From contig JBDKUT010000163.1 in assembly GCA_039679545.1 (NCBI GenBank), positions 17,997 through 81,996 of the forward strand: DNA of 64,000 nt, read 5' to 3'. Each line of letters begins with the position of its first letter. Positions within the stretch are counted from its first letter, which is position 1. A program made the translations under genes and the position numbers. Below are positions 18,352-35,917 of the stretch, one piece after another. A model generated the notes under the pieces. That model was not told the DNA's origin and searched no databases. It saw only the letters and a program-made list of their open reading frames with translations. Origin of the DNA: Thermotogota bacterium (lineage in GTDB: Bacteria; Bipolaricaulota; Bipolaricaulia; UBA7950; UBA9294).

Positions 18352-18360
18352 GCCAACCTC

Positions 18361-18807
18361 CTACTCGATGCGCTGCAGGCCCAAGTATCGTGTCTTGGGA
18401 AACCCGCGCTGCAGGTCGTCCCAAAGGAGTCCCTTCAGGATCGCCGGATGAACGACCCAATCAGCCATTTCGCCGCGGGACGCGAAGCACGCTTCGACGA
18501 CAAAGCCTTCGTCGGGGTCTCGGTGCTCGACGGTCGGCGACCCCTCGGCCGCCCGCGCGAGAATCCAGAACTTGCAGAAGTGGAGGTCCCCCTCGAGAAA
18601 CTCCTCGATGTAGACGACGCGCTCGGGCACGACGTTGAGGCCCGTCTCTTCATACGTCTCGCGCCGGGCGCAGTCGAAGATCGACTCCTCGCCGCGAAGC
18701 CGCCCGCCGGGGGGGACCCAGAAGTCCTGTCGGCTGTCCAGGTGGTGCACGACCAGAAGAGCGCCCTCCCGGGCGACGATCGCGCCGGCACTGATCGCGT
18801 AGCGCAT
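18361..18807 (-). CDS. NUDIX hydrolase
   Basis: Nudix box GGRLRGEESIFDCARRETYEETGL; start chosen at MRYAISAG (weak RBS). Confidence 0.8.
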   Translation of the reverse strand: MRYAISAGAIVAREGALLVVHHLDSRQDFWVPPGGRLRGEESIFDCARRETYEETGLNVVPERVVYIEEFLEGDLHFCKFWILARAAEGSPTVEHRDPDEGFVVEACFASRGEMADWVVHPAILKGLLWDDLQRGFPKTRYLGLQRIE

Positions 18808-18900
18808 GGTCTTGTGAGTGTCTTCCCGAGGCCGTCCGGCTTCAATCCCTCCCCATGGCGCGCCCAACCTCGATCGGCTATGGTAGCCATCGAGGGGACG

Positions 18901-20925
18901 ATGGCTCACGATTCCTGGCTTGACGAACTGAATCCCGCACAGCGCGCCGCCGTCACGCACGGCGCTGGCCCGCTGCTCGTCGTGGCGGGTGCCGGCACCG
19001 GCAAGACGAAGACCCTCGCCTATCGCGTCGCCTACCTGATCTCGCAAGGCGTCGACCCAGGGCGGATTCTCCTCCTCACGTTCACGCGCCGTGCGGCGCA
19101 GGAGATGCTTGAGCGCGCGTCAACCATCGTCGCTCGCGGTGCCTCGTCGGCAGGACGGGTCTGGGGAGGCACGTTCCACTCGATGGCCCACCGCCTGCTC
19201 CGGCTCTACGCTCCGTCTATCGGGATCGCCCGTGACTTCACCGTCCTCGATCAGGGCGATGCAGAGAACCTGATCCACTTCATCCGCCACGAGATGGGCC
19301 TCCACGAGAAGGAAAAGCGATTCCCTCGAAAGGGAACGTGTCTCGCCATTTACTCGCGCTGCGTGAACTCCGGTGACGACCTCAAGGCCGTCCTCGAGCG
19401 CGACTTCCCGTGGTGCGATGAATGGGAAGAGGAGCTCCGGACGCTGTTCAGGAAGTACGTCGTCCGCAAGCAGGATCGAAGCGTCCTCGATTATGACGAC
19501 CTCCTCCTGTACTGGATGGCTCTGCTCGACGTCCCGCAGCTGGCCGACGAGATCGGCGGACGGTTCGATCACGTTCTCGTGGACGAGTACCAGGACACGA
19601 ACATCGTGCAGGCGCGGATTCTCTTCGGGATGCGCAAGACGTGCCGCAACCTCATGGTCGTCGGCGATGACGCCCAGAGCATCTATGCGTTCCGCGGCGC
19701 CACGGTGCGCAACATGCTCGATTTCCCAGCGCAGTTCCCGGGAGCGACGATCGTCAAGCTTGAGCAGAACTACCGATCCGTCCTCCCGATCCTCGACACG
19801 GCGAATCGCCTGATCGCCGGGGCAAGCGAACGATTCGTCAAGGACCTCTGGTCGGAACGTCGGAGCACGACCCGACCGAAGCTCGTCACCTGCAAGGACG
19901 CCGCCGAGCAGGACGAGTACGTCGTCGACGCCGTGCTTCGGCACTACGAGGAAGGCATTCCCCTCCGCCGCCAGGCGATCCTCTTCCGCGCTGCCCACCT
20001 CTCCGACACACTCGAGATCGAGCTCGCGCGGCGGAACATCCCGTACCACAAGTACGGCGGGCTCCGTTTTCTCGAAGCCGCTCACGTGAAGGACCTACTC
20101 GCCTTTCTCCGCGTGCTTGAGAATCCTCGCGACGAGCTGGCGTGGTTCCGCATCCTTGAACTTCTGGAGGGAGTCGGTCCGACAACGGCGTCACACGTCG
20201 TCGAGCACGTCGGACAGAGCGGCAATGACCCGCGTGTTGTTCGCTCGTTCGGCGGCTCTGCCGCCGCGCGTGCCGGTCTCGCCGACCTCGCCGATGTCTT
20301 CGACGACCTCGTCCCGCTCGGACCGAAGAACCCCGAGGCGCAGATTGAGCGGATCCGACGCTTCTATGACCCCGTGTTCGAGAGAACGTATGAGAACCCG
20401 GTTGTTCGGGTCCGCGACCTGATCAGTCTTGAGCAGATTGCCGGGGGATACCGCTCACGACACCAGTTCCTCGCCGACGTTCAACTCGACCCGCCGACCT
20501 CAACGAGCGATCTCGCCGGAGCCCCCCACCTGGACGAGGATTGGCTCGTTTTGTCGACGATCCACTCGGCCAAGGGGTGCGAGTGGGACGTCGTCTACCT
20601 CATCCACGCCGCCGATGGATTCCTCCCGTCCGACCTCTCGACCGGCTCGCAGGATGAGATTGAGGAGGAGCGCCGCCTCGTCTACGTAGCGCTCACCCGA
20701 GCGAAGGATCACCTCTACATCACGTGGCCTCTGCGCTACTACCACAAGTGGTACGCGCTCGGTGACGACCACGGCTACGCCCAGCTCTGTCGCTTCTTCA
20801 CCCCAGACGTGCTCGACACGATCGACAACGTTGCACTCGCGGCACCCAAAGAGAGGGACGACGGAGGATCGTTCTACGACGTCGACGCGGACGTACGGCA
20901 GCGGATGCGTGACATGTGGGAGTAG
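18901..20925 (+). CDS. UvrD/PcrA/Rep family ATP-dependent DNA helicase
   Basis: Helicase motifs AGAGTGKT (Walker A), DEYQDT, VGDDAQSIY, C-terminal VALTRAK; 675 aa from ATG 18901. Confidence 0.9.
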   Translation: MAHDSWLDELNPAQRAAVTHGAGPLLVVAGAGTGKTKTLAYRVAYLISQGVDPGRILLLTFTRRAAQEMLERASTIVARGASSAGRVWGGTFHSMAHRLLRLYAPSIGIARDFTVLDQGDAENLIHFIRHEMGLHEKEKRFPRKGTCLAIYSRCVNSGDDLKAVLERDFPWCDEWEEELRTLFRKYVVRKQDRSVLDYDDLLLYWMALLDVPQLADEIGGRFDHVLVDEYQDTNIVQARILFGMRKTCRNLMVVGDDAQSIYAFRGATVRNMLDFPAQFPGATIVKLEQNYRSVLPILDTANRLIAGASERFVKDLWSERRSTTRPKLVTCKDAAEQDEYVVDAVLRHYEEGIPLRRQAILFRAAHLSDTLEIELARRNIPYHKYGGLRFLEAAHVKDLLAFLRVLENPRDELAWFRILELLEGVGPTTASHVVEHVGQSGNDPRVVRSFGGSAAARAGLADLADVFDDLVPLGPKNPEAQIERIRRFYDPVFERTYENPVVRVRDLISLEQIAGGYRSRHQFLADVQLDPPTSTSDLAGAPHLDEDWLVLSTIHSAKGCEWDVVYLIHAADGFLPSDLSTGSQDEIEEERRLVYVALTRAKDHLYITWPLRYYHKWYALGDDHGYAQLCRFFTPDVLDTIDNVALAAPKERDDGGSFYDVDADVRQRMRDMWE

Positions 20926-21016
20926 CCAGTTCTGTGGGCGACGCCGGCCCTCCGAGGAGTGAGAGCCTCGAGCGCGCCTGTTCCATTCCATTGGGTTGTA
21001 GCGACATGCGGCGGTA

Positions 21017-21105
21017 TTGACGAGGACCGGCCTCGGATTATAATGGCAACGATTTCGGAAAACGATACACCTTAGAACTGAACAGCGCGAAAACGTTTTC
21101 CGAAA
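21017..21105 (+). promoter_or_regulatory. Sigma70-type promoter TTGACG-16-TATAAT plus LacI-family operator (tttcggaaaacg ... palindrome GAAAACGTTTTC), copy 1
   Basis: -35 ~21017-21022, -10 ~21039-21044; 12-mer at 21053-21064 and its reverse complement at 21094-21105; element duplicated at 27073-27161. Confidence 0.6.
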
Positions 21106-21111
21106 CAGCCC

Positions 21112-21402
21112 ATGAACCGACGAGAGCCGAGGAAGCGAGCCACAGTCCGCGACGTCGCACTTCGCGCCAGTGTATCCATCGGCAACGTCTCCCGAGTGAT
21201 CAACTACGGTGTCTCCTCCCAAGTGCACGACACGACGCTCACGCGTCTGACCCAGGGTGCATATCAACTCACGCGATCCACAATTACAGGAGACACCCCG
21301 CAAGCACGAGCGATACGAAAACGCTGCCCGTGCAGCAAGGGAGGTGGTCGCAGAGCCAATGCGCTTGGTGCATTACGTGATGATAATGTCATATACATTT
21401 AA
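21112..21402 (+). pseudogene. LacI-family regulator remnant retaining only the HTH headpiece (first ~47 codons homologous to the intact paralog at 27168)
   Basis: MNRREPRKRATVRDVALRASVSIGNVSRVIN...SSQVHDTT aligns with the 27168 gene; remainder of ORF unrelated, ligand-binding domain absent. Confidence 0.55.
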
Positions 21403-21413
21403 AGGAGGTTGCG

Positions 21414-23000
21414 GTGGTCATTAGGCGTAAGCGCGTGTACGTCGCAGTTCTCGTAGGAGCGCTGTCCTTGTTGCTCTATGGGACGCCTCTGCTCGCTAGT
21501 ACTCCTGCAGACACCTTGGTCGTTGGAACCTTGCAGGAGATCTCTCTTGTGGACCCATCTATCGACTACAGCTTCACCGGCGGGCCCATCTTCCCAGCTG
21601 CGTATGAGCGCCTCGTCACCTTCAATAGCCACACCGGGAAGGTTGAGCCTGAGCTAGCCGTCAGTTGGGACATATCGGAGGACGGCACGGTCTACACCTT
21701 CAACGTGCGGCAGGGAGTGCAGTTTCACGATGGGTCAGCCCTCAACGCGGAATCTGTCAAGATCGCGTTTGACCGAACGATGAAGATCAACAGGGGACCG
21801 GCATGGATGCTGCGCGACTACGTCAAGGAAGTCGCTGTCGTCTCACCCTACGTCGTGCAGATTACTCTGAAGGCTCCGTTCGGCCCCTTCTTGAAGGTGC
21901 TGACCTCCTCTTGGGGTATGTCGATCATGAGCCCGAAAGCCTTGGCCGATCATGAGGAAGCGGGCGATCTCGCGCAAGGCTGGTTCCACGACAATATGTG
22001 CGGCACGGGACCGTACAAACTCGTCAGCTGGACGAAGGGCCAACAGATGGTGTTCGAGAAGTTCGACGCATATTGGCGCGGATGGGACGGGAACCATGTT
22101 GACCGAGTCATCGTGCGGGTGGTCCCTGACCCTACGACCTTGGTCATGATGCTTCGAAACGCTGATATAGACATCGCCTCGTACGGGCTGGTTTCCGAGT
22201 TAGGACCAAGCCTCGAGGGTGCCCCCCACTTGGTCACAGAGTCATACGAGACCTACACAACGGAAGCCGCTTTCATGAACACGACACGCGCCCCTCTTGA
22301 CGACGTCAGAGTGCGCCGAGCCATGTCGTACTCATTCCCCTACGAGGGAGCCTTGCAGGCCTATGGCGGCTACGCGGAGCGCTTGATTGGCCAATTGCCG
22401 CCCTCCTTGCCTGGTTTTGATCCCAACAGTCAGGTCTATCATCAAGACCTGGCCCTGGCCAAGAAACTGCTCACGGAAGCAGGAATCAATGAGGGTAGCC
22501 TGGCCTTGGAGTGCACGTGGGTTACTGAACAGCCAACCGGTGGAAGAATCGCCGAGCTCTGGCAACAGGATCTGGCAACGATCGGAGTGACCCTCAAGCT
22601 GACCGAGGTGAACGCTGCCGGCGGTTGGCTCCGAATATCCAGCCCGGAGACAACGGCTGACTTCACGATCACGAGGTGGGGAGTCGACTACCCTGACGCT
22701 CTGTCCAATCTGCTGCCTCTATACAAGAGCGATCTCACACCTGACAAAGGCGGGTACAACATCGGGCGATACAGCAATCCCTACGTGGATCAGCTCCTCA
22801 TCCAAGCCTCTCAGGAGGCGAATGTAGAAAAGGCAGTGCTCCTGGAGCAAGAAGTTCAACGCTACATCACGGACGATGCCCCGTCCATCTTCATCGTTGC
22901 AGTACCGCAGCTTGTCTGCTATCAGGACACCGTCAAGGGGTTTGTCTACGACCCGGGCTACTTCAGCTCCTTCAACCTCTATAACATGTACAAGGAGTAG
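21414..23000 (+). CDS. ABC transporter substrate-binding protein, family 5 (peptide/nickel/opine type)
   Basis: Signal peptide, SBP_bac_5 pattern; ~60% identical to paralog 28295..29854; AAAGGAGG RBS before GTG. Confidence 0.9.
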   Translation: MVIRRKRVYVAVLVGALSLLLYGTPLLASTPADTLVVGTLQEISLVDPSIDYSFTGGPIFPAAYERLVTFNSHTGKVEPELAVSWDISEDGTVYTFNVRQGVQFHDGSALNAESVKIAFDRTMKINRGPAWMLRDYVKEVAVVSPYVVQITLKAPFGPFLKVLTSSWGMSIMSPKALADHEEAGDLAQGWFHDNMCGTGPYKLVSWTKGQQMVFEKFDAYWRGWDGNHVDRVIVRVVPDPTTLVMMLRNADIDIASYGLVSELGPSLEGAPHLVTESYETYTTEAAFMNTTRAPLDDVRVRRAMSYSFPYEGALQAYGGYAERLIGQLPPSLPGFDPNSQVYHQDLALAKKLLTEAGINEGSLALECTWVTEQPTGGRIAELWQQDLATIGVTLKLTEVNAAGGWLRISSPETTADFTITRWGVDYPDALSNLLPLYKSDLTPDKGGYNIGRYSNPYVDQLLIQASQEANVEKAVLLEQEVQRYITDDAPSIFIVAVPQLVCYQDTVKGFVYDPGYFSSFNLYNMYKE

Positions 23001-23010
23001 TTTCTTCTTT

Positions 23011-23040
23011 CCCCCTGCGGTGCCTGCGCACCGCAGGGGG
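23011..23040 (+). other. Intercistronic perfect 13-bp stem-loop (ccccctgcggtgc-ctgc-gcaccgcaggggg) between SBP and permease genes
   Basis: Read directly from sequence; no T-tract downstream on + strand, so likely mRNA-stabilising/attenuating rather than a full terminator. Confidence 0.6.
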
Positions 23041-23053
23041 CCCATTCGACATC

Positions 23054-24067
23054 ATGGCCTACGTCATCTACGTCCTGAAGAGATGCGCTCTGCTGCTGCT
23101 CGTGATCCTTGGGGTCGTGACACTGACCTTTTTCGTATCTCACGTGCTGCCTGCGGATCCCGCCAGACTCAGCGGCGGGATCCGTGCTAGACCGGAACAG
23201 GTCGAAGCCCTTAGGGCAAAACTGAACCTCGACAAGCCCATACTCACGCAGTATTGGCTGTATCTTAGGGGACTGTCGAGAGGCGACTTGGGTACCTCGG
23301 TTCGCACGGAGCAACCAGTGAGTAGAGATCTTCTCACCTACTTTCCCGCTACTCTTGAGTTGACGTTCTCTGCGGTGATGCTTGCCATGTGCGTCGGTAT
23401 CCCGCTCGGAGTCCTTTCGGCCACCTCAAGAAGACGCTTCTTCGACTTCGGTGTCAGGACCTTCTCTGTTGGCGCTGTCTCTATACCCTCGTTCTGGCTT
23501 GGCCTGATGCTTCAACTGGTGTTCTACATGAACCTCAACCTGCTGCCTTGCCAAGGACGCCTCAGCCCCTTTGTCGCCCCTCCCAGCCACACTACCGGCC
23601 TGTACGTTCTAGATAGTCTCTTGGCTTGGAACGGTGCAGCCCTGGTCAACTCTCTGCAGCACCTCGTTCTGCCCACGCTGGCCTTAGGTGCTGGATCACT
23701 TGCAGTCATGACACGAATGACGCGGTCCAGCGTACTTGAGGTTCTTCGTACTGACTATGTTCAGACAGCGTGGGCGAAGGGGCTCTCGAAACAGGCCGTT
23801 CTCCTCAAGCATGTGCTTCGGAACGCTCTCCTGGCAATATCCACCGTGATAGGCCTTCAAATCGGCGCTCTTCTTGCAGGATCTATCCCCATCGAAGTCG
23901 TGTTCTCCTGGCCTGGTGTTGGCTCCTACGCTGCGAAAGCCATCACGTTTGTGGATTTCAACGCCATTCTCGGGGTCACCATCATCAGCGCGGTGGCATA
24001 TGCAGTGCTGAATCTCATGATCGATCTGCTGTACTTGTCAATTGACCCGCGTATTAGGTATGTCTAG
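23054..24067 (+). CDS. ABC transporter permease (DppB/OppB-like)
   Basis: 6-TM BPD_transp_1 pattern; paralog of 29924..30928. Confidence 0.9.
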   Translation: MAYVIYVLKRCALLLLVILGVVTLTFFVSHVLPADPARLSGGIRARPEQVEALRAKLNLDKPILTQYWLYLRGLSRGDLGTSVRTEQPVSRDLLTYFPATLELTFSAVMLAMCVGIPLGVLSATSRRRFFDFGVRTFSVGAVSIPSFWLGLMLQLVFYMNLNLLPCQGRLSPFVAPPSHTTGLYVLDSLLAWNGAALVNSLQHLVLPTLALGAGSLAVMTRMTRSSVLEVLRTDYVQTAWAKGLSKQAVLLKHVLRNALLAISTVIGLQIGALLAGSIPIEVVFSWPGVGSYAAKAITFVDFNAILGVTIISAVAYAVLNLMIDLLYLSIDPRIRYV

Positions 24068-24457
24068 CGCGCCTGACTCCATGCGAAAAACCGGCAGCCA
24101 ACCAGCCAAACATAGGCCAGCGGTTCTCGGTCGCCTAGGCCTCCGCCCTCTATTGTTGTGTTTTCTGCAACGGGGTTGCGTGGGCCTAGAGGGATCGATG
24201 TGGCTGATCCTCGACTATGACTGGCTCCGACGCTGGGCCGTGGCGTTCGGGTGCGCGAAGCGCCTCATGCGGACTGGGACACAGCGAGTGCTGCCCGGCT
24301 GCGAATCCGACATGTCATGGCGCATCCGGGCGGCGCCTGACCCTGCACGCCGCATCGCCGATAGCCAACCGAGAAGCCCAGTCCCCGCAACGGTCACGCC
24401 GCCACAATGGAGGTCCGCCGAGTGATCAGGAAGAGCTGCTACCTAGCCCGCAAGCTG

Positions 24458-25294
24458 ATGAGCGTCCAGCGGGTCATCTCCAAGGATGCAATCGGCGTAG
24501 TGGGAGCATCGATATGTGTGCTCATGCTGGGCATTGCGCTGCTTGCCCCGCACATTGCGCCCTACAATCCTTTGGCAGCGGACATGAAGATCCGGCTAGT
24601 CGCTCCGTGCGCTGCGCATGTCATGGGAACGGATGAACTGGGCCGAGACGTCCTTTCTCGGGTGATCTACGGCTCTCGGATCTCACTGCTCGTATCGATT
24701 TCGGTTGTCTCTATCGCGTTCCTCGCCGGGGTCCTCTTGGGCGCTGTCAGTGGCTTCTTTGGCGGCTGGGTCGACAACCTCATCATGCGGGTGACAGATG
24801 TCTTCCTTGCGTTCCCCGCATTGATGCTGGCGATGGTTGTTGCGTTCGCCTTCGGTCCCGGAATCCGTTCAACCGTTCTGGCGATGTCGGTTGTCTGGTG
24901 GCCCTGGTATGCACGGCTGGTGCGGGCTTCTGCTCTCTCCATTAGGGAGCACACATTCGTTGAAGCCGCTCGTGCTACTGGTGTTTCGAGGGGGGGCATC
25001 CTCTTCCGCCACATACTCCCAAACTGCCTCGCTTCGTCTCTCGTGCAGGCGACGTTGGATATGGGGTATGCCATCCTTACGACAGCGACTCTGAGTTTTC
25101 TGGGCCTCGGCGCGCAGCCCCCAACCCCCGAATGGGGATCAATGATCAACCAGTCACGATCGTATCTTCTGGTCGCGTGGTGGACAATTACGTTTCCAGG
25201 CATAGGCATCTTCATCACAGTGCTCGGGATCAATCTCCTCGGAGATGCCGTTCGGGATTTCATGGACCCGAAACTGCGCCATGTCAGGAACTGA
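24458..25294 (+). CDS. ABC transporter permease (DppC/OppC-like)
   Basis: Paralog of 30941..31792; start set at MSVQRV (ORF extends to 24407). Confidence 0.85.
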   Translation: MSVQRVISKDAIGVVGASICVLMLGIALLAPHIAPYNPLAADMKIRLVAPCAAHVMGTDELGRDVLSRVIYGSRISLLVSISVVSIAFLAGVLLGAVSGFFGGWVDNLIMRVTDVFLAFPALMLAMVVAFAFGPGIRSTVLAMSVVWWPWYARLVRASALSIREHTFVEAARATGVSRGGILFRHILPNCLASSLVQATLDMGYAILTTATLSFLGLGAQPPTPEWGSMINQSRSYLLVAWWTITFPGIGIFITVLGINLLGDAVRDFMDPKLRHVRN

Positions 25295-25306
25295 GAATGG
25301 AGGACC

Positions 25307-26359
25307 ATGATGGCAGAACCAAGATGGAGTGACTATTCTGGTGTTGTGCACGTCCACTCTACGTGTTCTGATGGCTTGGGTTCGATGGAACAGATCATCG
25401 ATGCGGCGTGTGCGGAGCACCTGGATTACCTGATTACTACGGATCACAACACGCTGGCACCAAGGCACCATGAAGGATGGCACGGCGATACCCTCGTCCT
25501 GGTAGAAGAGGAAGTCACTCAACCCGCCAACCATCTCTTGGCTTTGAACATCCGCGATGAGATCGTTCCGCCAATTAGCCCACAGCAATCGATCGACGCA
25601 GTGCTCGCACAGGGGGGGCTCGCTTTCATGGCCCATCCCTTCTATCAGGGGAGCAAACTTCTCGGCGATCCACCGATCCCCTGGACTGATTGGAAGGCGA
25701 CTGGCTTCACCGGGATGGAGATCTGGAACTTCACGGCGGAATTGTATGAGAGCCTCTCGGAAGAGAAGGAGCTGCGACCGCTCGAGACGTATCGTGCGCT
25801 GATGCGGCCTAAAGCAGAGGTGTTGAGAACATGGGACCGGCTTCAGCAAGAACGCCGCGTTGTAGGCCTTGCTGGGCTTGATGCTCATGCGGAGCAGATC
25901 GTGCAAGGCGGAGAGAGAGTGACTCTATTGCCTTACGCAACGATATTCCGCACTCTCCGCATGCATGTACTCCTTGAGCATCCATTCACCGGTAGCCTGC
26001 CAGATGACAGACGAGCTGTCTATGCGGCTCTACGAGACGGTCATGGTTATATCGCCTTCGAATACGAGTCCCCAGTAGACTCCTTCACCTTTGCGGCCGT
26101 TGACAGAACGGGAGCAATTGCAGGGGTGATGGGCGATGAGTTCGGATGGAAGCCTGGCATGCGTTTGTCCATCGCACTCCCCAGACCAGCAGCAATCAGG
26201 GTCATCCGGAATGGAGAAACGCTCGAAGAGGTCTGCGGCCCTTCACTCCTTCTTTCTGTTGAAGAGGACGGCTGCTATCGCGTAGAGGTCCAGCGGGACG
26301 CTCTCCCGTGGATAGTGTCCAACCCCATATACATTCGAAATGGGCGCTCCTCAACTTGA
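25307..26359 (+). CDS. PHP-domain metal-dependent phosphoesterase
   Basis: N-terminal HVHSTCSDG...TDHN PHP motifs; GGAGGA RBS; present only in copy 1 of the duplicated operon. Confidence 0.8.
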   Translation: MMAEPRWSDYSGVVHVHSTCSDGLGSMEQIIDAACAEHLDYLITTDHNTLAPRHHEGWHGDTLVLVEEEVTQPANHLLALNIRDEIVPPISPQQSIDAVLAQGGLAFMAHPFYQGSKLLGDPPIPWTDWKATGFTGMEIWNFTAELYESLSEEKELRPLETYRALMRPKAEVLRTWDRLQQERRVVGLAGLDAHAEQIVQGGERVTLLPYATIFRTLRMHVLLEHPFTGSLPDDRRAVYAALRDGHGYIAFEYESPVDSFTFAAVDRTGAIAGVMGDEFGWKPGMRLSIALPRPAAIRVIRNGETLEEVCGPSLLLSVEEDGCYRVEVQRDALPWIVSNPIYIRNGRSST

Positions 26360-26374
26360 GAAGAGCAGTACGGC

Positions 26375-26520
26375 GTGTTGGACGGCCGCCTAGCACAGCG
26401 GATGCGGATGCAGGCCATGCGGGCCGAGGTCGGCTGCACAGTTCGCCGGTCGCCGATCGACCGGGCACTCGGGCCTTTGACCGCGCGTTCACCGCAGCGG
26501 GAAAGACGTTCGGCCGCTGA
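26375..26520 (+). pseudogene. Class-III aminotransferase remnant: first ~15 codons fused to last ~30 codons (internal ~1.3 kb deletion)
   Basis: MLDGRLAQRMRMQ ~ MMDGYLAQRKRMQ of 31838 gene; ...IDRALG...RAFTAAGKTFGR* ~ C-terminus IDRALGIFDRAFAAAERKFGR*. Confidence 0.55.
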
Positions 26521-26529
26521 GGTGGGCCA

Positions 26530-26700
26530 CGCCACAAGTCAGCCAGCCAAGGTGCCGTGCTCGGGTCAACCAACGCCGGCCTCGTCGCACGCATGGCCTC
26601 GCTGCCGCAGCCGGGAGAGATGGCCCTCAGTCATGTCGCACTACCCGGGCGGAGAATAGCCCAACCAGGCCGTCGCGGCCGACACGCCGGGAGGTGGACG
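26530..26700 (+). pseudogene. pfkB/ribokinase-like kinase remnant (start codon lost, frameshift and in-frame stop)
   Basis: Nucleotide homology to 33305.. (gccagtcATGagccaaccagcc vs gccacaagtcagccagcc; VLGSTNAGLVARMASLPQPGEMALS vs [25 protein letters not shown]); end approximate. Confidence 0.5.
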
Positions 26701-27072
26701 AGCTCCTCTACGTCCACCCAAACCACGGGCTCCCCTCGTTCACTGCGTTCCGCAGTGGCTGATCGGGGCGCGGACGCTCGATGGGTCCATCTCGGAAGCG
26801 GTCTCGGACTTGGCCGCCTCGAGACGATGCCGTGAGCCGACGCCATCACGACTTTTCCTGTCACGATGAGCAGACGCACGGCCGCGGACTCCACACCGGG
26901 GAACCCAGGCAAACGAACAAGAGCGACGGTTCACCGACACGTCCACAGGAACGAGCACTTTTCTGATAACCGCCTCGCGGAGTTGTCAAGTCACGTGAAG
27001 GATCTCCGGAAAGCCGGACGCTGGAGAGGTCTCCTGCTCGACTTTGGCTAGTCGGAGCGGTTTGCGTCGGCA

Positions 27073-27161
27073 TTGACTGGGGGTGAGTCCTGACTATAAT
27101 GGCAACGATTTCGGAAAACGATACCCCGAAGAACCGAACAGCGCGCAAACGTCTTCCGAAA
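27073..27161 (+). promoter_or_regulatory. Sigma70-type promoter TTGACT-16-TATAAT plus LacI-family operator, copy 2 (upstream of intact LacI gene)
   Basis: -35 ~27073-27078, -10 ~27095-27100; tttcggaaaacg 27109-27120; cgtcttccgaaa 27150-27161 (1 mismatch to inverted copy). Confidence 0.6.
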
Positions 27162-27167
27162 CACTCC

Positions 27168-28232
27168 ATGAATCGACGAGAGCCGAAGAAGCGAGCCACG
27201 ATCCGCGACGTCGCCCTCCGCGCAGGGGTTTCGATCAGCACCGTCTCCCGGGTGATCAATCACAAGGACTCCTCGCAAATGCGCGACACCACGCGGGAGC
27301 GCGTCGTCGACGCGATGGCGGCCCTCGACTACACGCCGGTGAAGGCCGCCCGCGACCTGCGCCGGCGAAGAACTCACGTCGTGGCCCTCCTCGTCCCCGA
27401 CATCTCCAATCCGTTCTTCTCGCTCCTCGCACGCGGGGTCGAGGCCGCCGGATTCAAGGTGGGGTACTCGACGCTGATCTGCGACACCAACAACTCCGGG
27501 GACGAGGAGCGGCAGTACATGAGCGTCCTCCTTCGGCAGAACGTGGACGGGGTGATCCTGGTCCCGGTAGGAAAGCCCGACCGCGCGAGTCTGGAGAGGC
27601 TGGACCGCTCGAACATCCCGGTGGTCACGGCGGATCGCCGGGCGCCGGGCATCCCGCACGTCGAGGCCGACAACGCCGGAGGCAGCCGCAACCTGGCGAA
27701 GAGCCTCGTCAGCCTTGGGTACCGAAGGATCGCGTACCTCGGAGGCCCGCAAGAGGTCAGTACGGCCGAGGACCGGCTCCAAGGCTTTCTGGAAGGCCTC
27801 GCCGAAGGCGGCGCCGCTCCGGCGGCGGTTCGCCGAGGAGATTTCACGTACGACTCCGGGGTGTCCTTGGGCGCCGAGATTCTGGGGGAAAAGCGCCTGG
27901 ACGCCGTCGTCGCCGGCAACGACCTGATGGCGATCGGCGTCCTCCACGCGGCGATGGCTGCGGGGCGAAGAGTGCCCGAGGACCTTGGAGTCGCCGGATT
28001 CGACGACATTCAGTGGGCGGCCCTCGTGCGGCCGCGGCTCACCACGGTCCGGGTCCCCTTTCTGGAGATCGGGCAGTGCGCGGCACGTGCCCTCGTCGCC
28101 CGCATCCTGTCCCACGAGAGCGCAGAGGAGCACACCCGTCTCCCCGTCAGCTTGGTAATCGGCGACTCGACGTGTGCACAAAGGAATACAGGACTGGGTC
28201 GTCCTCGGGGAACGGACCCGAAAGCGAGGTGA
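27168..28232 (+). CDS. LacI family transcriptional regulator
   Basis: N-terminal HTH (ATIRDVALRAGVSISTVSRVIN) and periplasmic-binding-like sugar-binding domain; 354 aa. Confidence 0.9.
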   Translation: MNRREPKKRATIRDVALRAGVSISTVSRVINHKDSSQMRDTTRERVVDAMAALDYTPVKAARDLRRRRTHVVALLVPDISNPFFSLLARGVEAAGFKVGYSTLICDTNNSGDEERQYMSVLLRQNVDGVILVPVGKPDRASLERLDRSNIPVVTADRRAPGIPHVEADNAGGSRNLAKSLVSLGYRRIAYLGGPQEVSTAEDRLQGFLEGLAEGGAAPAAVRRGDFTYDSGVSLGAEILGEKRLDAVVAGNDLMAIGVLHAAMAAGRRVPEDLGVAGFDDIQWAALVRPRLTTVRVPFLEIGQCAARALVARILSHESAEEHTRLPVSLVIGDSTCAQRNTGLGRPRGTDPKAR

Positions 28233-28294
28233 TCGAAGGTCGAAGGGCAGTTCGGGAGCGTAGGCTACGGCAAGTGTGCAGGGAGGCTTGAACC

Positions 28295-29854
28295 ATGAGA
28301 ACCCGTTTTGCTTGTTGCCTTGTGGCGTTGCTCGGCGTCTCGGCGGTCTCCGCGATCGCCTCCACCCCCGCCGACACCTTGGTGGTCGGGGTTGTGGAGG
28401 AAGTCACGACGATGGATCCCGCTATCGACTACACGTTTGGAAGCGGACCGCTCTTCCGGGCCGCTTACGAAAGGCTCGTGACCTTCAACACGGCGTCCGG
28501 GAAGATCGAGCCGCAGCTGGCTCTCTCCTGGGACGTGTCGGACGACGGCCAGTTCTACACGTTCCACCTCCGCAAGGGCGTGACGTTCCACGACGGCGCG
28601 GCGTTCAACGCAGCGGCCGTAAAGACGGCCTACGACCGCGTCATGACGATCAACGAGGGTCCGGCGTGGATGCTGACCTCGTACGTCGCGGCAATCGATG
28701 TCGTGGATGACGCGACCGTCCGATTCACAATGAAGACGTACCCATTCGTCCCATTCCTGCGCGTGCTCAGCTCCTATTGGGGCATGTGCATCGCCAGCCC
28801 CACCGCCATCACCCAGAACGCGGGCGACGACATGGGGAAGACGTTCTTCCGAAATCACATCGTCGGAACCGGCCCGTACAAGCTCGTCGAGTGGGTCGAG
28901 GGCCAGCAGATGGTGTTTGAGCGCTTTGACGGGTACTGGGGCGGCTGGACCGGCAACCACGTGAACCGCATCGTGCTGCGGAAGATCCTCGACACGACGA
29001 CGATGGCCCTGCTCCTCGAGAGCGGCGACCTGGACATCGCGTACGGGATCCCGCTCGATGAGCTGACGAGCCTGAACGGCAAGCCCGGCGTCGTCATCGG
29101 CGTCCACGACACGTTCACGACGAACATGATCGCGATGAACACGACGAAGGGCCCGCTCGCCGACGTTCGCGTGCGCCGAGCGCTCTCCTACTCGTTCGAC
29201 TACGCGAGCGCGATGGAGGTCTTTGCCGGGTACACAACGCCCCTCATTGGCCAGATTCCGGCCGGCATGCCGGGTCACGACGACAGCCTGCCGCACTACG
29301 TCTTCGACCTCGACGTGGCGAAGCAGCTGCTCGCCGAAGCAGGGTACGCGAAGGGGCTTTCGCTCGAGTACACCTGGGTCACGGAAGAGCCGGAGGGACG
29401 CCGGGTCGGCGTTCTGTGGCAGGACACGCTACGGAAGATCGGCGTCGATTTGAAGGTCACCGAAGTCACGGTCGCCGGACACTGGGACCGAGTCTCGAAC
29501 ATCGAGACGATGCCGGATCTCGCCAACTACCGGTGGGGCATCGACTACCCAGACCCGTCGTCCGTCCTGGTGCCGCTCTACCACGGCGACAACGCGCCCC
29601 CGGCGGGCTACAACCTCTCGCGGCTCGCGGATCCGCGGGTCAACGCCATCCTCGACGCATCGGGGAAGGAACCCGATGAGACGAAGAGACTCCAACTCCT
29701 GGCGGAGGCCCAGTCGCTCCTGCTGACCGGTGCTTCCAACATCTGGATCACGGCGGTTCCGGTCACGGTCTGCATGCGCAGCAACGTGCAGGGCTACGTT
29801 TTTGAACCGGCCGCGTTCTCATCGTTCAACTTCTACGACATCTACAAGAAGTAG
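28295..29854 (+). CDS. ABC transporter substrate-binding protein, family 5
   Basis: Signal peptide; SBP_bac_5 pattern; GGGAGG RBS. Confidence 0.9.
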   Translation: MRTRFACCLVALLGVSAVSAIASTPADTLVVGVVEEVTTMDPAIDYTFGSGPLFRAAYERLVTFNTASGKIEPQLALSWDVSDDGQFYTFHLRKGVTFHDGAAFNAAAVKTAYDRVMTINEGPAWMLTSYVAAIDVVDDATVRFTMKTYPFVPFLRVLSSYWGMCIASPTAITQNAGDDMGKTFFRNHIVGTGPYKLVEWVEGQQMVFERFDGYWGGWTGNHVNRIVLRKILDTTTMALLLESGDLDIAYGIPLDELTSLNGKPGVVIGVHDTFTTNMIAMNTTKGPLADVRVRRALSYSFDYASAMEVFAGYTTPLIGQIPAGMPGHDDSLPHYVFDLDVAKQLLAEAGYAKGLSLEYTWVTEEPEGRRVGVLWQDTLRKIGVDLKVTEVTVAGHWDRVSNIETMPDLANYRWGIDYPDPSSVLVPLYHGDNAPPAGYNLSRLADPRVNAILDASGKEPDETKRLQLLAEAQSLLLTGASNIWITAVPVTVCMRSNVQGYVFEPAAFSSFNFYDIYKK

Positions 29855-29923
29855 GATTCGGCTCTCAGATGGGGGAGTTCCTCCGATGAGGAGAGGGCTC
29901 CCCCCTTGCTGGATCGGCAGGTC

Positions 29924-30928
29924 ATGGTTCGCTACATCGTGAAGCGGTTGGCGCTCTTGACCATCACGCTCCTGGGCGTGTTGACGCTGACCTTCTTTGT
30001 CTCGCACGTCGTTCCCGGAGATCCGGCGCGCCTCGCGGCGGGCGTACGCGCCAGGCCCGAACAGGTCGAAGCACTCCGAACAAGGCTCGGCCTCGACCGC
30101 CCGCTGTGGCAGCAGTACGGCCACTACATCGCTGGCGTGGTTCGGGGGGACCTCGGAGAGTCGATCCGGACGCGCCGTCCGGTCTCCGCCGACCTGGCCG
30201 AGTACTTCCCGGCCACGGTCGAACTCACCGCATTCGCCATGATCCTCTGTCTTCTCATCGGGATTCCACTCGGAATCGTCTCGGCCGTCAAGCGAGAGTC
30301 GGTCATCGACCACGTCTCCCGCGTCGCGTCGACGGCGGCCGTGTCCATGCCCACGTTCTGGCTCGGCCTGCTCTTGCAGCTCCTCTTCTTCCGTTGGCTC
30401 CAGATTCTCCCGGCGACGGGGCGCCTCGGCTTCTACCTCTCGCCGCCCGCCCACGCGACGGGGCTGTACGTGCTCGACAGCCTGTTCTCGGGGAACTGGA
30501 CCGCGCTCGGAGACAGCCTCGTCCACCTCATTCTCCCAGCCACGGCGCTCGCGGCGAGTTCCATGGCCGTGATCACGCGCATGACGCGATCGAGCCTCCT
30601 CGAGATCCTCTCCCTTGACTACGTCCGAACGGCTCGTTCGAAGGGACTGGCCGAGAAGGTCGTCATCCTCAAGCACGCACTTCGCAACGCGCTCTTGCCG
30701 AGTCTCACCGTCATCGGCCTGCAGGTTGGCGTGCTCCTGGCCGGAGCCGTGCTGATCGAAGTGGTCTTCAGCTGGCCCGGGATCGGGTTGTACGCCGTCC
30801 AATCCATCACGTTCGTCGACTTCCAGGCAATCCTCGGCGTCACCCTGATCACGGCGATCGTCTACTCCGGGGTCAACCTGATCGTCGACGTCTTGTACGG
30901 GGTCATCGACCCACGAATTCACTACTAG
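29924..30928 (+). CDS. ABC transporter permease (DppB/OppB-like)
   Basis: Start at MVRYIVKRL by analogy to paralog MAYVIYVLKR. Confidence 0.9.
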   Translation: MVRYIVKRLALLTITLLGVLTLTFFVSHVVPGDPARLAAGVRARPEQVEALRTRLGLDRPLWQQYGHYIAGVVRGDLGESIRTRRPVSADLAEYFPATVELTAFAMILCLLIGIPLGIVSAVKRESVIDHVSRVASTAAVSMPTFWLGLLLQLLFFRWLQILPATGRLGFYLSPPAHATGLYVLDSLFSGNWTALGDSLVHLILPATALAASSMAVITRMTRSSLLEILSLDYVRTARSKGLAEKVVILKHALRNALLPSLTVIGLQVGVLLAGAVLIEVVFSWPGIGLYAVQSITFVDFQAILGVTLITAIVYSGVNLIVDVLYGVIDPRIHY

Positions 30929-30940
30929 GAGAACGGGGAC

Positions 30941-31792
30941 ATGAAGGCATTCTGGGAGAAGCTCGGACGATGGATCGCGGTGAGGCCGCTCGCCGCCGCC
31001 GGAGCGGCGACCCTGCTCGCCATCCTGCTTCTCGCGCTCCTCGCACCGGTGCTCCCGCTTCAGGACCCTCAGTCCGTGAACATGCACGACAAGCTCCTTC
31101 CGCCGTCGGCGGCGCACCCGATGGGGACCGACGACCTCGGCCGCGACATCCTCAGTCGCGTCGTGAACGGTGCGCGGACCTCGCTCTTGGTGAGCGTTGT
31201 GGTCGTCGCCTGTGCCTCCGTGTTCGGCATGGGCGTCGGCCTGACGGCGGGCTACTTCGGTGGAATGGCGGACGAACTCATGATGCGGACGACGGACATC
31301 TTTCTCGCGTTCCCCGGACTCATCCTCGCCATGGCCGTCGCCGTCGTCCTCGGCCCCGGCGTCGTTCCGACGATCGTCGCTCTGTCCATCGTCTGGTGGC
31401 CGTGGTACGCCCGGCTGGCTCGATCGGAGGCGCTGATGCACAAGCAGGCGGACTTCGTGGAGGCGGCCCGAGCAACGGGCGTCCCGACGTGGAGGATCCT
31501 CCGTTCCCACATCCTTCCGAACTCGCTGTCGCCGCTCATCGTTCAGGCGACGCTCGACATGGGGTACGCGATCCTGACGACGGCGTCGCTGAGCTTTATC
31601 GGATTGGGCGTGCAGGAGCCGACCGCGGAATGGGGCGCCATGCTCAACATCGGCCGAAAGTACCTTCTCTCCGCATGGTGGTTCATCACGTTCCCGGGTC
31701 TCGCCATCTTCATCACGGTTCTGGCGATCAACCTCGCCGGAGACGGCCTTCGAGACTACCTCGACCCGAGAACGAGGAAACGGGGCGCCTGA
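30941..31792 (+). CDS. ABC transporter permease (DppC/OppC-like)
   Basis: 6-TM permease; AGGAGAACGGGGAC ATG. Confidence 0.9.
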   Translation: MKAFWEKLGRWIAVRPLAAAGAATLLAILLLALLAPVLPLQDPQSVNMHDKLLPPSAAHPMGTDDLGRDILSRVVNGARTSLLVSVVVVACASVFGMGVGLTAGYFGGMADELMMRTTDIFLAFPGLILAMAVAVVLGPGVVPTIVALSIVWWPWYARLARSEALMHKQADFVEAARATGVPTWRILRSHILPNSLSPLIVQATLDMGYAILTTASLSFIGLGVQEPTAEWGAMLNIGRKYLLSAWWFITFPGLAIFITVLAINLAGDGLRDYLDPRTRKRGA

Positions 31793-31837
31793 CCCGCTTC
31801 GGGGCGGGCGCCCCACGTTAAAACAAAGGAGTACGAC

Positions 31838-33292
31838 ATGATGGACGGTTACCTGGCGCAACGTAAGAGGATGCAGATCTCGCAGGTCGAGATCGATCGG
31901 CGCATCGCGGAAGCCCCATTCGGACCTGCCTCGAAGGAGTGGGCGAGCCGCTGGCTCTCCGCCGAATCGTGGGGGCAGGTCGGCCTCGCGCTGTTCGACC
32001 TTCCGCCGATCGTCGAACGCGCGGAGAACGACCTCTTGATCGACGCCGACGGCAAAGAGTACGTTGACCTCTTGGCGGGATTCTCGGTTTCCTCGCTCGG
32101 GCAGTGCAACGAGGAGATCGCCCAGGTCATCCGCAACCAGGTCGGGAAGCTCGTCCACTACTTCGATCTACCCCACCCCGAGCGGATCAAGCTCGCCGAG
32201 CGCCTGAAGGAGATCTCGCCGATCGCCGGGAGTGACTCGCGCGTCTTATTCGGCGTCACCGGAGCGGACGCCATCGAGTTGTCGGTTCGCGCGGCGCGGT
32301 TCTACACCGGGCGACCTCTCATCCTGACCGCCTTCGGCGACTACCACGGCGTCACGTACAGCACGATGGCCCTGACGGGCAAGGGCGGCATGTGGGCGTA
32401 CTTCTACCCGGTGCTTCCGCACTGCGAAGGCATCGGGTACTTCCCGTTCCCGTATCCATACCAGTCGCCGTTTGGACGCCCGCCGGCCGGCGAAGACGAC
32501 CAGGCCTGGTGCCTCGACCGACTGCGCGACTACTTCGAGTACTACTTCAAGAGCAAAGAATCCCCCTACCGTGAAGTGAAGAGCGGAATCACCAACGTCG
32601 CCGCGTTCGTCGTCGAGCCATTTCAGAGTTCCGCCGGGTACATTCTCCCCTCCGCCGGCTACCTGAAACTCCTGCGGCGCTTGGCAGACGAGTACGGAAT
32701 CCTCCTGATCATCGACGAGATCCAGACAGGACTCGGGCGCACCGGGAAGCTCTGGGCCACCGACTGGGAGGACGTAAAACCTGACATGCTCGTCACGTCG
32801 AAGGCTCTCGGAGGTGGCCTGCCGCTCTCGGCCGTCGTGGCGCGCGCCGAGATCCTCGAGGCGTGGGGACCCGGAGCCCACGTCTCAACGCAGGCGGGCA
32901 ATGTCCTCGCTTGTGCTGCCGGGAACAAGGCCCTCGATCTCCTCACAGCGGACGGCTTCCTCGACAAGGTCCGAGCCCACGGTGCGTACTTCGAGGCCGA
33001 ACTCGCGACGCTCGCGAAGAAGCATCCTCTGATTGGCCACATCAATGCCCGCGGCATGTACATCGGACTCGAGCTCGTCCGAAACCGAGACACGCGAGAA
33101 CCCGCGCCGGATGAAGCCAGCTTCATTCTCAAGGAGTGCGTCCGCGAGGGGATGGTGTTCGAGAAGGGCGGGTACTTCCACAACCGATTCCAGCTCATCC
33201 CGCCGCTCACGATTCGTCGATCGACCATCGACCGGGCCCTCGGGATCTTCGACCGTGCGTTCGCGGCGGCAGAAAGGAAGTTCGGCCGCTGA
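31838..33292 (+). CDS. Class-III pyridoxal-phosphate-dependent aminotransferase
   Basis: DEIQTGLGRTGKLWA and TSKALGGG(L) (Schiff-base Lys) motifs; AAAGGAG RBS. Confidence 0.9.
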   Translation: MMDGYLAQRKRMQISQVEIDRRIAEAPFGPASKEWASRWLSAESWGQVGLALFDLPPIVERAENDLLIDADGKEYVDLLAGFSVSSLGQCNEEIAQVIRNQVGKLVHYFDLPHPERIKLAERLKEISPIAGSDSRVLFGVTGADAIELSVRAARFYTGRPLILTAFGDYHGVTYSTMALTGKGGMWAYFYPVLPHCEGIGYFPFPYPYQSPFGRPPAGEDDQAWCLDRLRDYFEYYFKSKESPYREVKSGITNVAAFVVEPFQSSAGYILPSAGYLKLLRRLADEYGILLIIDEIQTGLGRTGKLWATDWEDVKPDMLVTSKALGGGLPLSAVVARAEILEAWGPGAHVSTQAGNVLACAAGNKALDLLTADGFLDKVRAHGAYFEAELATLAKKHPLIGHINARGMYIGLELVRNRDTREPAPDEASFILKECVREGMVFEKGGYFHNRFQLIPPLTIRRSTIDRALGIFDRAFAAAERKFGR

Positions 33293-33304
33293 GGCGGGCC
33301 AGTC

Positions 33305-34255
33305 ATGAGCCAACCAGCCAGAGTGTCCGTGCTCGGGTCGATCAATGCTGACCTCGTTGCGCGTGTGGTTTCGCTGCCGCGGCCGGGAGAGACGGTCCTG
33401 AGCAGCTCGTTGTCGCACTATTCGGGAGGCAAGGGGGCGAACCAGGCGGTCGCCGCTGCGCGGATGTCGGCCCGCGTCACGTTCTACGGGAAGACGGGGG
33501 CCGACTCCGCGGGAGACCAACTTCTCGCCGGGCTCCGCACCGAGGGGATCGGCACAAAGCAGATCCAACGGATGAACGGGGTCGAGACGGGGATGGCACT
33601 CATTCTCGTCAGCGACGCAGGCGAGAACACGATCGTCGTCGTTGCGGGTGCCAACGATCACGTCGACGCGGAATACGTCGACGCGGTCATCACCGACGTC
33701 GGCTTTGCCGACACGCTTCTGCTTCAGTTCGAGGTTCCGCCCGAGGCGATCCGCCGTCTGCTCGATCGCCTCCCGCCGAATCGCCCAAAGGTGATCGTCG
33801 ATCCCGCTCCCGCGCGGGACGTTACCGACCTTCCGCTCGCCCGGATCGACGTCATGACCCCGAACCGAACTGAGTTGGCTGCGCTGACGGGCGTAGACGA
33901 CATCGAGACCGGCGGTCGACGCCTGCTCGATCGAGGCGTCAAGTGCGTCATCTGTACGTGCGGATCAGACGGCAGCTACCTCATCGAGAACAGGGGAACG
34001 ACCCACTTTCCAGCGTTCCCGGTGCACGCCGTCGACACGACGGCGGCGGGCGACGCGTTCGCGGGCGCCTTGGCCGTCTTCCTCTCCAGCGGGGACTCGA
34101 TCGCTGTCGCAATCCGCGCAGCAAACGCCGCGGCGGCGCTTTCGACCACACGCCCTGGCGCTCAACCGTCGTTGCCAACGCGGCGGGAGGTGGACCAATT
34201 CCTACAGGCCCACCCCGGCCACGGCATCCCCTCGTTTGCTCCGTTTCGCGGCTGA
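33305..34255 (+). CDS. pfkB-family carbohydrate kinase (ribokinase-like)
   Basis: [14 protein letters not shown] and [13 protein letters not shown] motifs. Confidence 0.9.
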
Positions 34256-34269
34256 TGCGGCGAGGGCGC

Positions 34270-34881: not shown

Positions 34882-35013
34882 CCTCAAGATCCGTCTCCAT
34901 CTATATTGGACCATGATATCCATATTCGTGGAGGCGACGTGTCGAGAATGTGGACTCTATCTGAAGAGAATCACCGTGCCTTGTGAAACGGGATCAGCCG
35001 ACTCCCGTCAGGG

Positions 35014-35772: not shown

Positions 35773-35917
35773 TGGATTCCTCCTGAGCAGCCGTCGGCCA
35801 TGATAGCTTTCCCACGACCGCGTGGAAAGCGGTGCCACGGTCCGTGACCGCGGGTTCGCAACCCGGTAGTATCGACCGGTTCGTTGCCGCGCAGAGTCAT
35901 CGAGTGAGGGGGCTGGG

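Follow-up and report, generated by a model that had tools for sequence, protein, structure and literature searches.

Two transporter operons, termed unit 1 and unit 2, stand in tandem within the 64-kb window analysed here (64,000 nucleotides of contig JBDKUT010000163.1), and each of them is headed by a copy of the same promoter segment, with promoter P1 in copy 1 and promoter P2 in copy 2. An intact gene for a LacI-family repressor follows P2 at 27168-28232. The locus raises the questions of what has kept the promoter DNA of the two units alike and of how one segment came to stand in front of both. It is considered probable that the promoter copies carry operators of this LacI/RbsR-like repressor and that unit 1 was recombined into the locus.

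The promoter repeat and its predicted operators

The repeat, composed of 21007-21238 and 27063-27294, was 81.2% identical over 234 nt (BLASTN) and was the longest direct repeat within 17-36 kb. It was found where the original prediction had placed it, with an identity above that of the surrounding coding DNA by pairwise alignment; the claimed 85-90% over about 230 bp held for the segment from the -10 hexamer to the ATG (64/72, 89%) and not for the repeat as a whole. Segment identities, taken from an ungapped alignment of the copies at register +6056, were 15/27 on the 5' side of the -35 hexamer, 7/16 in the -35/-10 spacer and 103/129 (80%) across the 43 N-terminal codons of lacI, for which about 47 codons had been claimed. 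Past 21240 the identity fell to about 30%, the random level, with the end of homology at 21238-21240. TTGAC (5/5), TATAAT (6/6) and the predicted operator O1 (19/19) were identical between the copies, and the longest exact match was a 30-nt run, TATAATGGCAACGATTTCGGAAAACGATAC, inside the TATAAT-to-ATG segment.

The DNA identity in the rest of the units was 65.6% for the genes of the substrate-binding proteins (SBP), 68-74% for the permease genes and 71-76% for gene remnants (BLASTN), and the 64/72 of the leader exceeded this background of 65.6-76% with a binomial P of 6e-6 to 5e-3. The claim that the regulatory DNA is the more conserved part was thus upheld, with the reservation that some of the contrast appears to be due to the unusually divergent transporter genes of unit 1; the paralogous SBPs were 50% identical in protein sequence, not about 60%.

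The predicted TTGAC(G/T)-16 nt-TATAAT was present in both copies, and P1 and P2 were the only 11-of-12 promoter matches in 20800-28400 (7.6 kb). Transcription is predicted to start near 21050 from P1 and near 27106 from P2. Between the end of the -10 hexamer and the ATG lie 67 nt, which corresponds to a leader of about 60 nt in place of the 75 nt first given, and no plus-strand terminator-like site was found in the 363 nt from the predicted transcription start to the start codon of the unit 1 SBP gene (SBP'). Both copies are regarded with good confidence as strong sigma-70-type promoters, the start region of which is covered by predicted LacI-family operator DNA.

Two sites were delimited in each copy (Table 1). 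O1 (AACGATTTCGGAAAACGAT) lies directly 3' of the -10 hexamer and overlaps the predicted transcription start in P1, and O2 of P1 ends 5 nt 5' of the ATG. The 12-mer TTTCGGAAAACG was found at 21053 and 27109 and its reverse complement at 21094 (exact) and 27150 (one mismatch), as had been predicted, and the palindrome GAAAACGTTTTC was perfect at 21089-21100 and had two mismatches at 27145. An enrichment of the 12-mer, checked by counting within the 64 kb, was not found, the counts being reached in 13-17 of 100 shuffles. The significance of the sites was therefore drawn from their position and from orthologues, by the scan of a position weight matrix (PWM) and by orthologue footprinting. The PWM was trained on 11 orthologous sites, and scan and shuffles were limited to the window. 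O1 scored 37.2 bits at 21048 and at 27104, respectively, and O2 of P1 scored 16.0 bits on the minus strand, with a shuffle maximum of 14.3 bits; no site in the 64 kb besides these three scored above chance.

LacI/GalR operators are typically palindromes of 14-22 bp around a CG step, and DNA of this kind was found in O2, with its 12-bp GAAAAC-GTTTTC, and in O1, with two CG steps inside the 19-bp dyad. Two readings of the O1 register are available, namely an odd-centred 19-bp palindrome or two abutting CG-centred 14-bp boxes with centres 13 bp apart, GGAAAAC-GnTTTC(C/G) and (C/G)GAAAAC-GnTTTCC. The flanking GGAA and TTCC by which both boxes are completed are present in many homologues, whose outer halves have decayed in the window O1 to ATGGCAAC and GATACAC. 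Binding to O1 in the form of an everted dyad with an odd centre is possible, and for a dimer of the LacI family such a geometry would be unusual.

The distance from the centre of O2 (21094/95) to the second CG of O1 (21063/64) was 31 bp. Intersite distances in the LacI family peak at 13, 22 and 32 bp (Ravcheev et al. 2014, PMC4052901), more than one site is found before about 20% of the operons regulated by this family, 72% of its regulators are predicted to be autoregulated, and odd palindromes are reported for only about 4% of them (PMC4052901). The spacings of 13 and 31 bp match the reported 13- and 32-bp peaks, so that the architecture appears typical of the LacI family, and the 31-bp spacing would fit short-range cooperative binding better than the looping first proposed.

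O1 and O2 in orthologous loci

Homologous loci from genomes and metagenomes were fetched and labelled L001 onwards. Among the close relatives, the identity of LacI to the window protein was 97% (L001), 91% (L002), 90% (L007) and 85% (L005/L006). TTGAC, TATAATG, AACGATTTCGGAAAACG and GCGAAAACGTTT(T/C)CCGAAACA were invariant in these loci, and a second-site block, GCGAAAACGTTTtCCGAAACA, was invariant with varying flanks in L001, L002 and L005-L007. The promoter hexamers were invariant across the orthologues and the spacer drifted; the inter-site stretch and the upstream DNA were also variable among the close relatives.

One O1 copy each, located 3-6 nt past a consensus -10 hexamer and before the lacI start, was found in the distant orthologues L008, L009, L011, L014, L064, L089 and L090 (LacI identity 51-58%, with 52% for L090). 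O1 reads aaCGTTTTC-G-GAAAACGat in L008 and L089 and CGATTTCGGAGAACG in L011 and L064, and a variant, ACCGGTTCCGGAAAACGAT, stands at the equivalent place in L087 (LacI identity 65-68%). The consensus dyad was AACGnTTTC-(G/C)-GAAAnCG(A/T)T, and the 19-bp dyad was perfect in L008, L009 and L113. The regular expression CG.TTTC.GA.A.CG, run over 86 loci, matched only at the position 6 nt past the -10 hexamer of orthologous lacI genes. The metagenome scan, with the 19-mer AACGNTTTCGGARAMCGWT as the query, returned 120 loci, 23 of which carried the site, with the central base in either orientation, flanked by a TTGACA-17-TATAAT-like promoter on one side and a LacI-family gene on the other. Altogether 33 distinct operator-LacI pairs were collected, in which the site starts 3-6 nt past the -10 hexamer. 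Since an O1-type element stands at an equal distance from the -10 hexamer before 33 distinct LacI homologues, O1 is predicted to be the ancestral, universally conserved autoregulatory operator of the LacI lineage. The earlier description of a half-site at +1 is replaced by that of a conserved 19-bp dyad, or of two abutting CG-centred boxes, and the LacI-type reading itself gained from finding CG-centred sites at the promoter conserved in the orthologues. No discriminating co-variation of transcription factor and operator was found among the 33 pairs, in all of which the recognition helix reads STVSRV; an invariant helix fits an invariant operator core.

A role of the inverted repeat in RNA was weighed against this evidence. 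On this account TTTCGGAAAACG and CGTTTTCCGAAA would pair in the mRNA as a 12-bp leader hairpin, bringing the 5' end of the leader next to the bases that precede the AUG, by which the stability or translation of a lacI message devoid of a Shine-Dalgarno sequence is tuned. A stem of 12-14 bp was predicted for copy 1 (-13.2 kcal/mol, z = -2.05) and for L001 (-15.8 kcal/mol, z = -2.58) when six leaders were folded and scored against shuffled sequence, and the 3' arm ends 5 nt 5' of a start codon with no visible Shine-Dalgarno sequence. The leader of copy 2, however, folded no better than its shuffled versions (z = +0.41), and that of L005 adopted another fold. In the 3' arm two changes are seen in all, in copy 2 and in L005; both give A-C mismatches, with no compensation, and orthologues at LacI identities of 68% or less keep O1 perfectly without a partner arm. 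The dyad of L009, AACGGTTTC-G-GAAACCGTT, is perfect over its 19 bp, a G/C change in one arm being mirrored in the other, and as a hairpin it would have a loop of 1 nt, so that the symmetry of the arms is a property of the DNA. No Rfam family matched the leader at even half its gathering score, and Rfam, folding and alignment together gave neither a curated family nor a compensated structure. A hairpin also arises automatically from two inverted operator copies, and a regulatory leader RNA is considered unlikely.

Selection on binding sites would not be needed if the block of about 230 bp were simply younger than its surroundings, by a recent gene conversion or local duplication. The block is discrete with sharp ends, the copies lie 6 kb apart in direct orientation, and a mosaic, described below, shows past recombination. 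The identity inside the block is patchy in the manner of a footprint, however, with the spacer at 7/16 and the hexamers and O1 kept, and the bases kept between the copies are those conserved in the distant orthologues. Copy 2 differs from L001 at 11 positions in 27104-27199 and copy 1 at 24 positions in 21144-21240, so neither was recently overwritten, and the explanation by age is held to be improbable.

In the orthologues, drift is thus confined to the spacer and flanks, and TTGAC, TATAAT and the two sites are held constant. The autoregulation by LacI that the original prediction had suggested is the most economical reading of the conserved DNA. A different regulator, such as a global CcpA-like protein of the LacI family, could in principle bind the same sites, as cores of the AAACGTTT type are common to many LacI-family motifs and TGAAAACGTTTTCA boxes accompany those LacI genes of the fetched loci that are less closely related. 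Yet the 19-mer tracks the lineage of the window LacI across taxonomic bins and across differing operons (SBP_5/aminotransferase/ribokinase in the majority of loci, and SBP_1/amidohydrolase/DHO-dehydrogenase in L089), no further copy of it was found in the 64-kb window, and another regulator is thought very unlikely.

O2 was kept in L001, L002, L007 and L118 and had one change in L005, with a varying stretch between O1 and O2. O2 with GAAAACGTTTTC was limited to the close clade (LacI identity at least 81%) and was missing in L087 and at lower identities. O2 is thus predicted to be a later, clade-specific second operator that has been degraded in copy 2. The full palindrome at about +40 was confirmed as perfect in copy 1, but it is degraded in copy 2 and does not appear to be the primary operator; the hierarchy first assumed would be reversed, with O1 as the ancestral site and O2 as the added one.

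Some further occurrences of the motif were recorded. It precedes genes of RbsB-like binding proteins in L166 and L205. Five low-G+C metagenome contigs (L093, L125, L138, L146 and L178) carry the 19-bp dyad AACGGTTTCCGAAA(A/C)CGTT after a TTTACA-type promoter, before LacI genes of about 26% identity (full-length matches) with the helix STVSKV; with the dyad standing before such distant genes, the operator type is wider than the Bipolaricaulota lineage. In L109 (4448-4500) the motif is followed by further tandem half copies (AACGGTTTCGGAAACCGTTtcggaaaccgtttcggaac), which amount to an iterated dyad. In L089 (217-7329; LacI 55-58% identical, like that of L008) the same operator heads an operon that looks like one of reductive pyrimidine catabolism, in which genes for two amidohydrolases and for a DHO-dehydrogenase/Fe-S protein accompany those of a transporter of the SBP_bac_1 type, and in L090 a nucleoside hydrolase gene is added to the aminotransferase/ribokinase set. 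These gene contents hint that the LacI lineage senses nucleoside- or ribose-derived compounds.

Unit 1 and the history of the duplication

The closest relatives of the window genes were Candidatus Bipolaricaulota/Bipolaricaulis, and by the best LacI matches the window stems from a Candidatus Bipolaricaulota (Acetothermia)-like genome. In L001, L002/3/4, L005/6 and L007, uvrD is directly followed by a single promoter-lacI-SBP-permease-permease-aminotransferase-ribokinase unit. The DNA of L001 was 96% identical to 18915-21238 of the window (uvrD, P1 and the lacI remnant, lacI') and 98.9% identical to 27051-36232, and the approximately 6 kb between them are extra. Unit 1, absent from the four nearest relatives, is best read as an accessory insertion. 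A simple tandem duplication was rejected, as the four nearest relatives are single-unit and the unit 1 proteins fall outside all orthologues. Two paralogous operons do stand in tandem, as predicted, but the first is an accessory insertion with a 43-codon lacI stub and the promoters are reciprocal mosaics.

The promoter segment of copy 1 was 82-89% identical to those of L001, L007 and L118, and that of copy 2 was 60-71% identical, the spacer and upstream DNA of P2 being unlike those of any relative. Copy 1 followed L001 as far as 21143, with 3 differences in 96 nt, and from there to 21238 it showed 24 private differences. In copy 2, conversely, the private differences ran to 27187, in addition to the diverged spacer and upstream DNA, and the match to L001 began past them. 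The switch of the mosaic lies inside GAAGCGAGCCAC, in a switch zone of 12 nt. Such a reciprocal mosaic is the pattern expected from a single crossover within the promoter/lacI 5' segment. An incoming unit with a homologous promoter and lacI 5' segment would have recombined once with the resident promoter/lacI 5' region, by which P1 would have been left with native upstream DNA and foreign lacI' codons 11-43, and P2 with foreign upstream DNA and leader and the native lacI. In the foreign promoter/lacI' segment O2 is present and the leader length is equal, like those of a moderately close relative. Alternative histories, namely an old duplication followed by loss in the relatives, or a later gene conversion, are possible.

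Integration by a Campbell-type single crossover likewise doubles a homologous segment around the insert and leaves copies that are reciprocal mosaics of resident and incoming DNA. The present case differs in that no integrase, replication or mobilisation gene was found in the inserted 6 kb, in that the donor is unsampled, and in that the crossover would have taken place in DNA of 75-89% identity, a poor RecA substrate.

The arrangement could also be a chimera of the assembly, in which unit 1, borne by another strain or by a plasmid, was threaded into the chromosome at the shared promoter. The contig belongs to a metagenome bin, unit 1 is lacking from the closest genomes, and the source of SBP' is labelled Thermotogota with Bipolaricaulota as its neighbours. 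A Logan contig (L092, run SRR15035647), however, spans the uvrD 3' end, P1, lacI' and SBP' at 100% identity (20628-26043), by which independent support is given to the left junction only and not to the right one. With at most 30 nt of exact match between the copies and 12 nt in the switch zone, the shared sequence is too short for a join in a k-mer graph, and an assembly error is considered extremely unlikely.

Three observations were made beside these. The difference between the left flank (96%) and the right flank (98.9%) in identity to L001 suggests recombination between strains. The longest uvrD-like open reading frame (ORF), 17965-20925, has 986 codons (its counterpart in L001 being 2123-4156), and the UvrD proteins of the relatives have 674-677 aa; either the frame runs upstream past the true start or the protein has an N-terminal extension. 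The NCBI label on the SBP' contig is that of a Thermotogota metagenome-assembled genome, at variance with its Bipolaricaulota neighbours, and the bin may be mislabelled.

The genes of unit 1 are listed in Table 1. The helix-turn-helix (HTH) remnant in lacI' scored 24.3 bits with the Pfam LacI HTH profile, below the cut-off of 27, and the stop codon of lacI' coincides with the ribosome-binding site of SBP' (AAAGGAGG). The stub carries 24 unique differences in codons 11-43 and reads GNVSRV where 33/33 homologues read STVSRV, and it is therefore decaying. A filler of 175 nt (21239-21413) with lower G+C lies between lacI' and SBP', and it resembled neither the 3' end of lacI nor the intergenic DNA of the relatives, nor any fetched locus except the source's own Logan contig. 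The unit 1 transporter proteins were 50-60% identical to those of unit 2 and of all orthologues, and they branched outside all sampled orthologues, L090 included, in neighbour-joining trees. In a protein database search with SBP', a 100% match was returned from the source contig alone and every other relative stayed at or below 54% identity, so that the donor of unit 1 is unsampled. The metallohydrolase gene has no counterpart in unit 2 or in the relatives. The aminotransferase and ribokinase remnants were 71-76% identical to 31827-31895, 33213-33456 and 34166-34271 (BLASTN), within and around the intact genes at 31838-34255, and the residual ORFs in 26364-26779 gave no Pfam match.

Table 1. 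Promoters, predicted operators and genes of the two units, with their positions in the window
Feature	Position	Strand	Remarks
Promoter P1	21017..21044	+	TTGACG-16 nt-TATAAT; 11/12 consensus match; native copy, directly 3' of uvrD as in relatives
Operator O1 of P1 (predicted)	21048..21066	+	AACGATTTC-G-GAAAACGAT; 19-bp dyad; CG steps 21050/51 and 21063/64, 13 bp apart
Operator O2 of P1 (predicted)	21087..21107	+	GCGAAAAC-GTTTTCCGAAAC; CG-centred 12-bp palindrome 21089-21100; inverted O1 core 21094-21105
lacI' remnant	21112..21402	+	96-codon ORF; codons 1-43 lacI-homologous, rest unrelated
Unit 1 SBP'	21414..23000	+	Pfam SBP_bac_5
Unit 1 permeases	23054..24067, 24407..25294	+	Pfam BPD_transp_1
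PHP / CehA-McbA-type metallohydrolase	25307..26359	+	unit 1 only, between second permease and aminotransferase remnant
Aminotransferase and ribokinase remnants	26364..26779	+	5' and 3' ends of each; large internal deletions
Promoter P2	27073..27100	+	TTGACT-16 nt-TATAAT; 11/12 consensus match; precedes intact lacI
Operator O1 of P2 (predicted)	27104..27122	+	identical to O1 of P1 (copy alignment)
Operator O2 of P2 (predicted)	27143..27163	+	GCGCAAAC-GTCTTCCGAAAC; two substitutions seen in no relative
LacI-family repressor	27168..28232	+	354 aa; Pfam LacI HTH and Peripla_BP_1/3/4; presumed binder of O1/O2 at both promoters
Unit 2 SBP	28295..29854	+	Pfam SBP_bac_5
Unit 2 permeases	29906..30928, 30941..31792	+	profile matches
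Unit 2 class-III aminotransferase	31838..33292	+	profile matches
Unit 2 ribokinase	33305..34255	+	TIGR02152, 317.6 vs cut-off 299.65

The repressor, its proposed action and related systems

The LacI HTH domain (PF00356) of the intact repressor scored 64 bits with a cut-off of 27 (residues 11-57), and its effector domain scored 117.7, 102.9 and 80.8 bits with Peripla_BP_3, Peripla_BP_1 and Peripla_BP_4, respectively. RbsR and CytR were its best NCBIfam matches, both under the cut-off; with the RbsR equivalog models the scores fell short (NF047341, 240.4 vs 382 bits; NF007743, 197.7 vs 531 bits), and the protein is described here as RbsR-like and not filed as RbsR. A link to ribose uptake may be hinted at by the ribokinase gene in the operon; the transporter there is, however, of the SBP_bac_5 type, and an aminotransferase is present. 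The gene order of unit 2 is shared with the relatives, and its proteins were 99-100% identical to those of L001. No gene for an ATPase of the ATP-binding cassette (ABC) type was found in unit 1, in unit 2 or in the operons of the relatives (L001, L002, L005, L087 and L090), and Walker A/LSGGQ signatures occurred in the window only near 41.7, 45.0, 57.6 and 58.5 kb. Neither unit encodes a complete Opp/Dpp importer (SBP, two permeases and one or two ATPases), and the ATPase subunits must either be shared or come from genes at another place.

The LacI protein would bind O1, helped by O2, at both promoters, with 21045-21110 and 27101-27166 as the predicted bound DNA and TTTCGGAAA and AAACGTTT as the predicted contact sequences. 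O2 would let two dimers sit side by side on one helix face. As long as inducer is absent, the repressor would occlude the start and leader, and initiation or early elongation would be blocked; both its own operon (lacI, SBP, permeases, aminotransferase and ribokinase) and the regulator-less operon of unit 1 would be shut off. The repressor would be released by an inducer, which is probably a ribose-containing compound because of the ribokinase of the operon, the nucleoside hydrolase of L090 and the RbsB-type targets elsewhere. P1 keeps the native, perfect O2 and would now drive unit 1, and P2, the O2 of which has two private changes, may be repressed less tightly.

Several points weigh against this interpretation. 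The assignment of the sites to the window LacI is one by co-occurrence. O2 of P2 scored at the chance level (10.4 bits, PWM), so that the lacI promoter itself may lack a working two-site mechanism. O1 is ambiguous in its register, which may be that of an odd-centred dyad, a rare type, or of two even boxes with degenerate outer halves. Finally, the foreign promoter/lacI' segment is 75-89% identical in DNA and the transporter 50-60% identical in protein, a disparity that a single donor would explain poorly.

The closest known counterpart is the rbs system with RbsR, with which the window shares a LacI-family repressor, an ABC transporter and a ribokinase in one operon, an operator that overlaps the promoter/start region, the operator core AAACGTTT with a central CG, which is the core of O2 and the RbsR motif (PMC5601083), and RbsR as the best NCBIfam match of the repressor. 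It differs in that the match stays at 240 bits with an equivalog cut-off of 382, in an Opp/Dpp-type (SBP_bac_5) transporter, devoid of an ATPase gene, in the place of one of the RbsB type, in the presence of a class-III aminotransferase, in the position of lacI as the first and not the last gene of the operon, and in a main operator that is a 19-bp composite dyad and not a single even palindrome. With the double sites of the LacI family (E. coli GntR at gntKU; RafR/ScrR; PMC4052901) the window shares spacings of 13 and about 32 bp and the typical autoregulation, but in this clade the conservation within O1 is confined to the inner everted pair, the outer half-sites being degenerate.

A further comparison is with O1 of the E. 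coli lac operon, a pseudo-palindrome that has an odd base pair at its centre and lies at the transcription start, and repression is strengthened there by auxiliary operators. By analogy, the odd central base pair, the placement at the start site and the auxiliary site would be shared by O1 of the window, whereas the half-site sequence is another one, the auxiliary site lies tens and not hundreds of base pairs away, and nothing argues for looping.

Taken as a whole, the locus is predicted to be a LacI-type autoregulated promoter-operator under purifying selection, which would represent ordinary regulation and no new mechanism. An operator motif and a promoter architecture are defined by it for a LacI lineage in Bipolaricaulota (Acetothermia), to our knowledge an uncultured phylum with essentially no experimental data on regulation. 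As the motif stands before 33 distinct LacI homologues, distant metagenome ones included, regulon prediction becomes possible in those genomes. The locus would also offer a natural example of how a repressor already in place can take control of an added operon, with no new site having to evolve. Since the promoter-operator-HTH segment is the best-conserved DNA of these operons, an incoming operon with its own copy can recombine there, and a more general role of the segment as a landing pad is put forward tentatively, as a possibility that we hold to be less probable than its opposite: a foreign or paralogous operon would recombine in, lose its own repressor and be wired to the resident repressor and operator. 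If this were true, the landing pad would be a case of regulon growth by homologous capture at an operator, seen here at an early stage, with one intact lacI, reciprocally mosaic promoters and a 43-codon stub.

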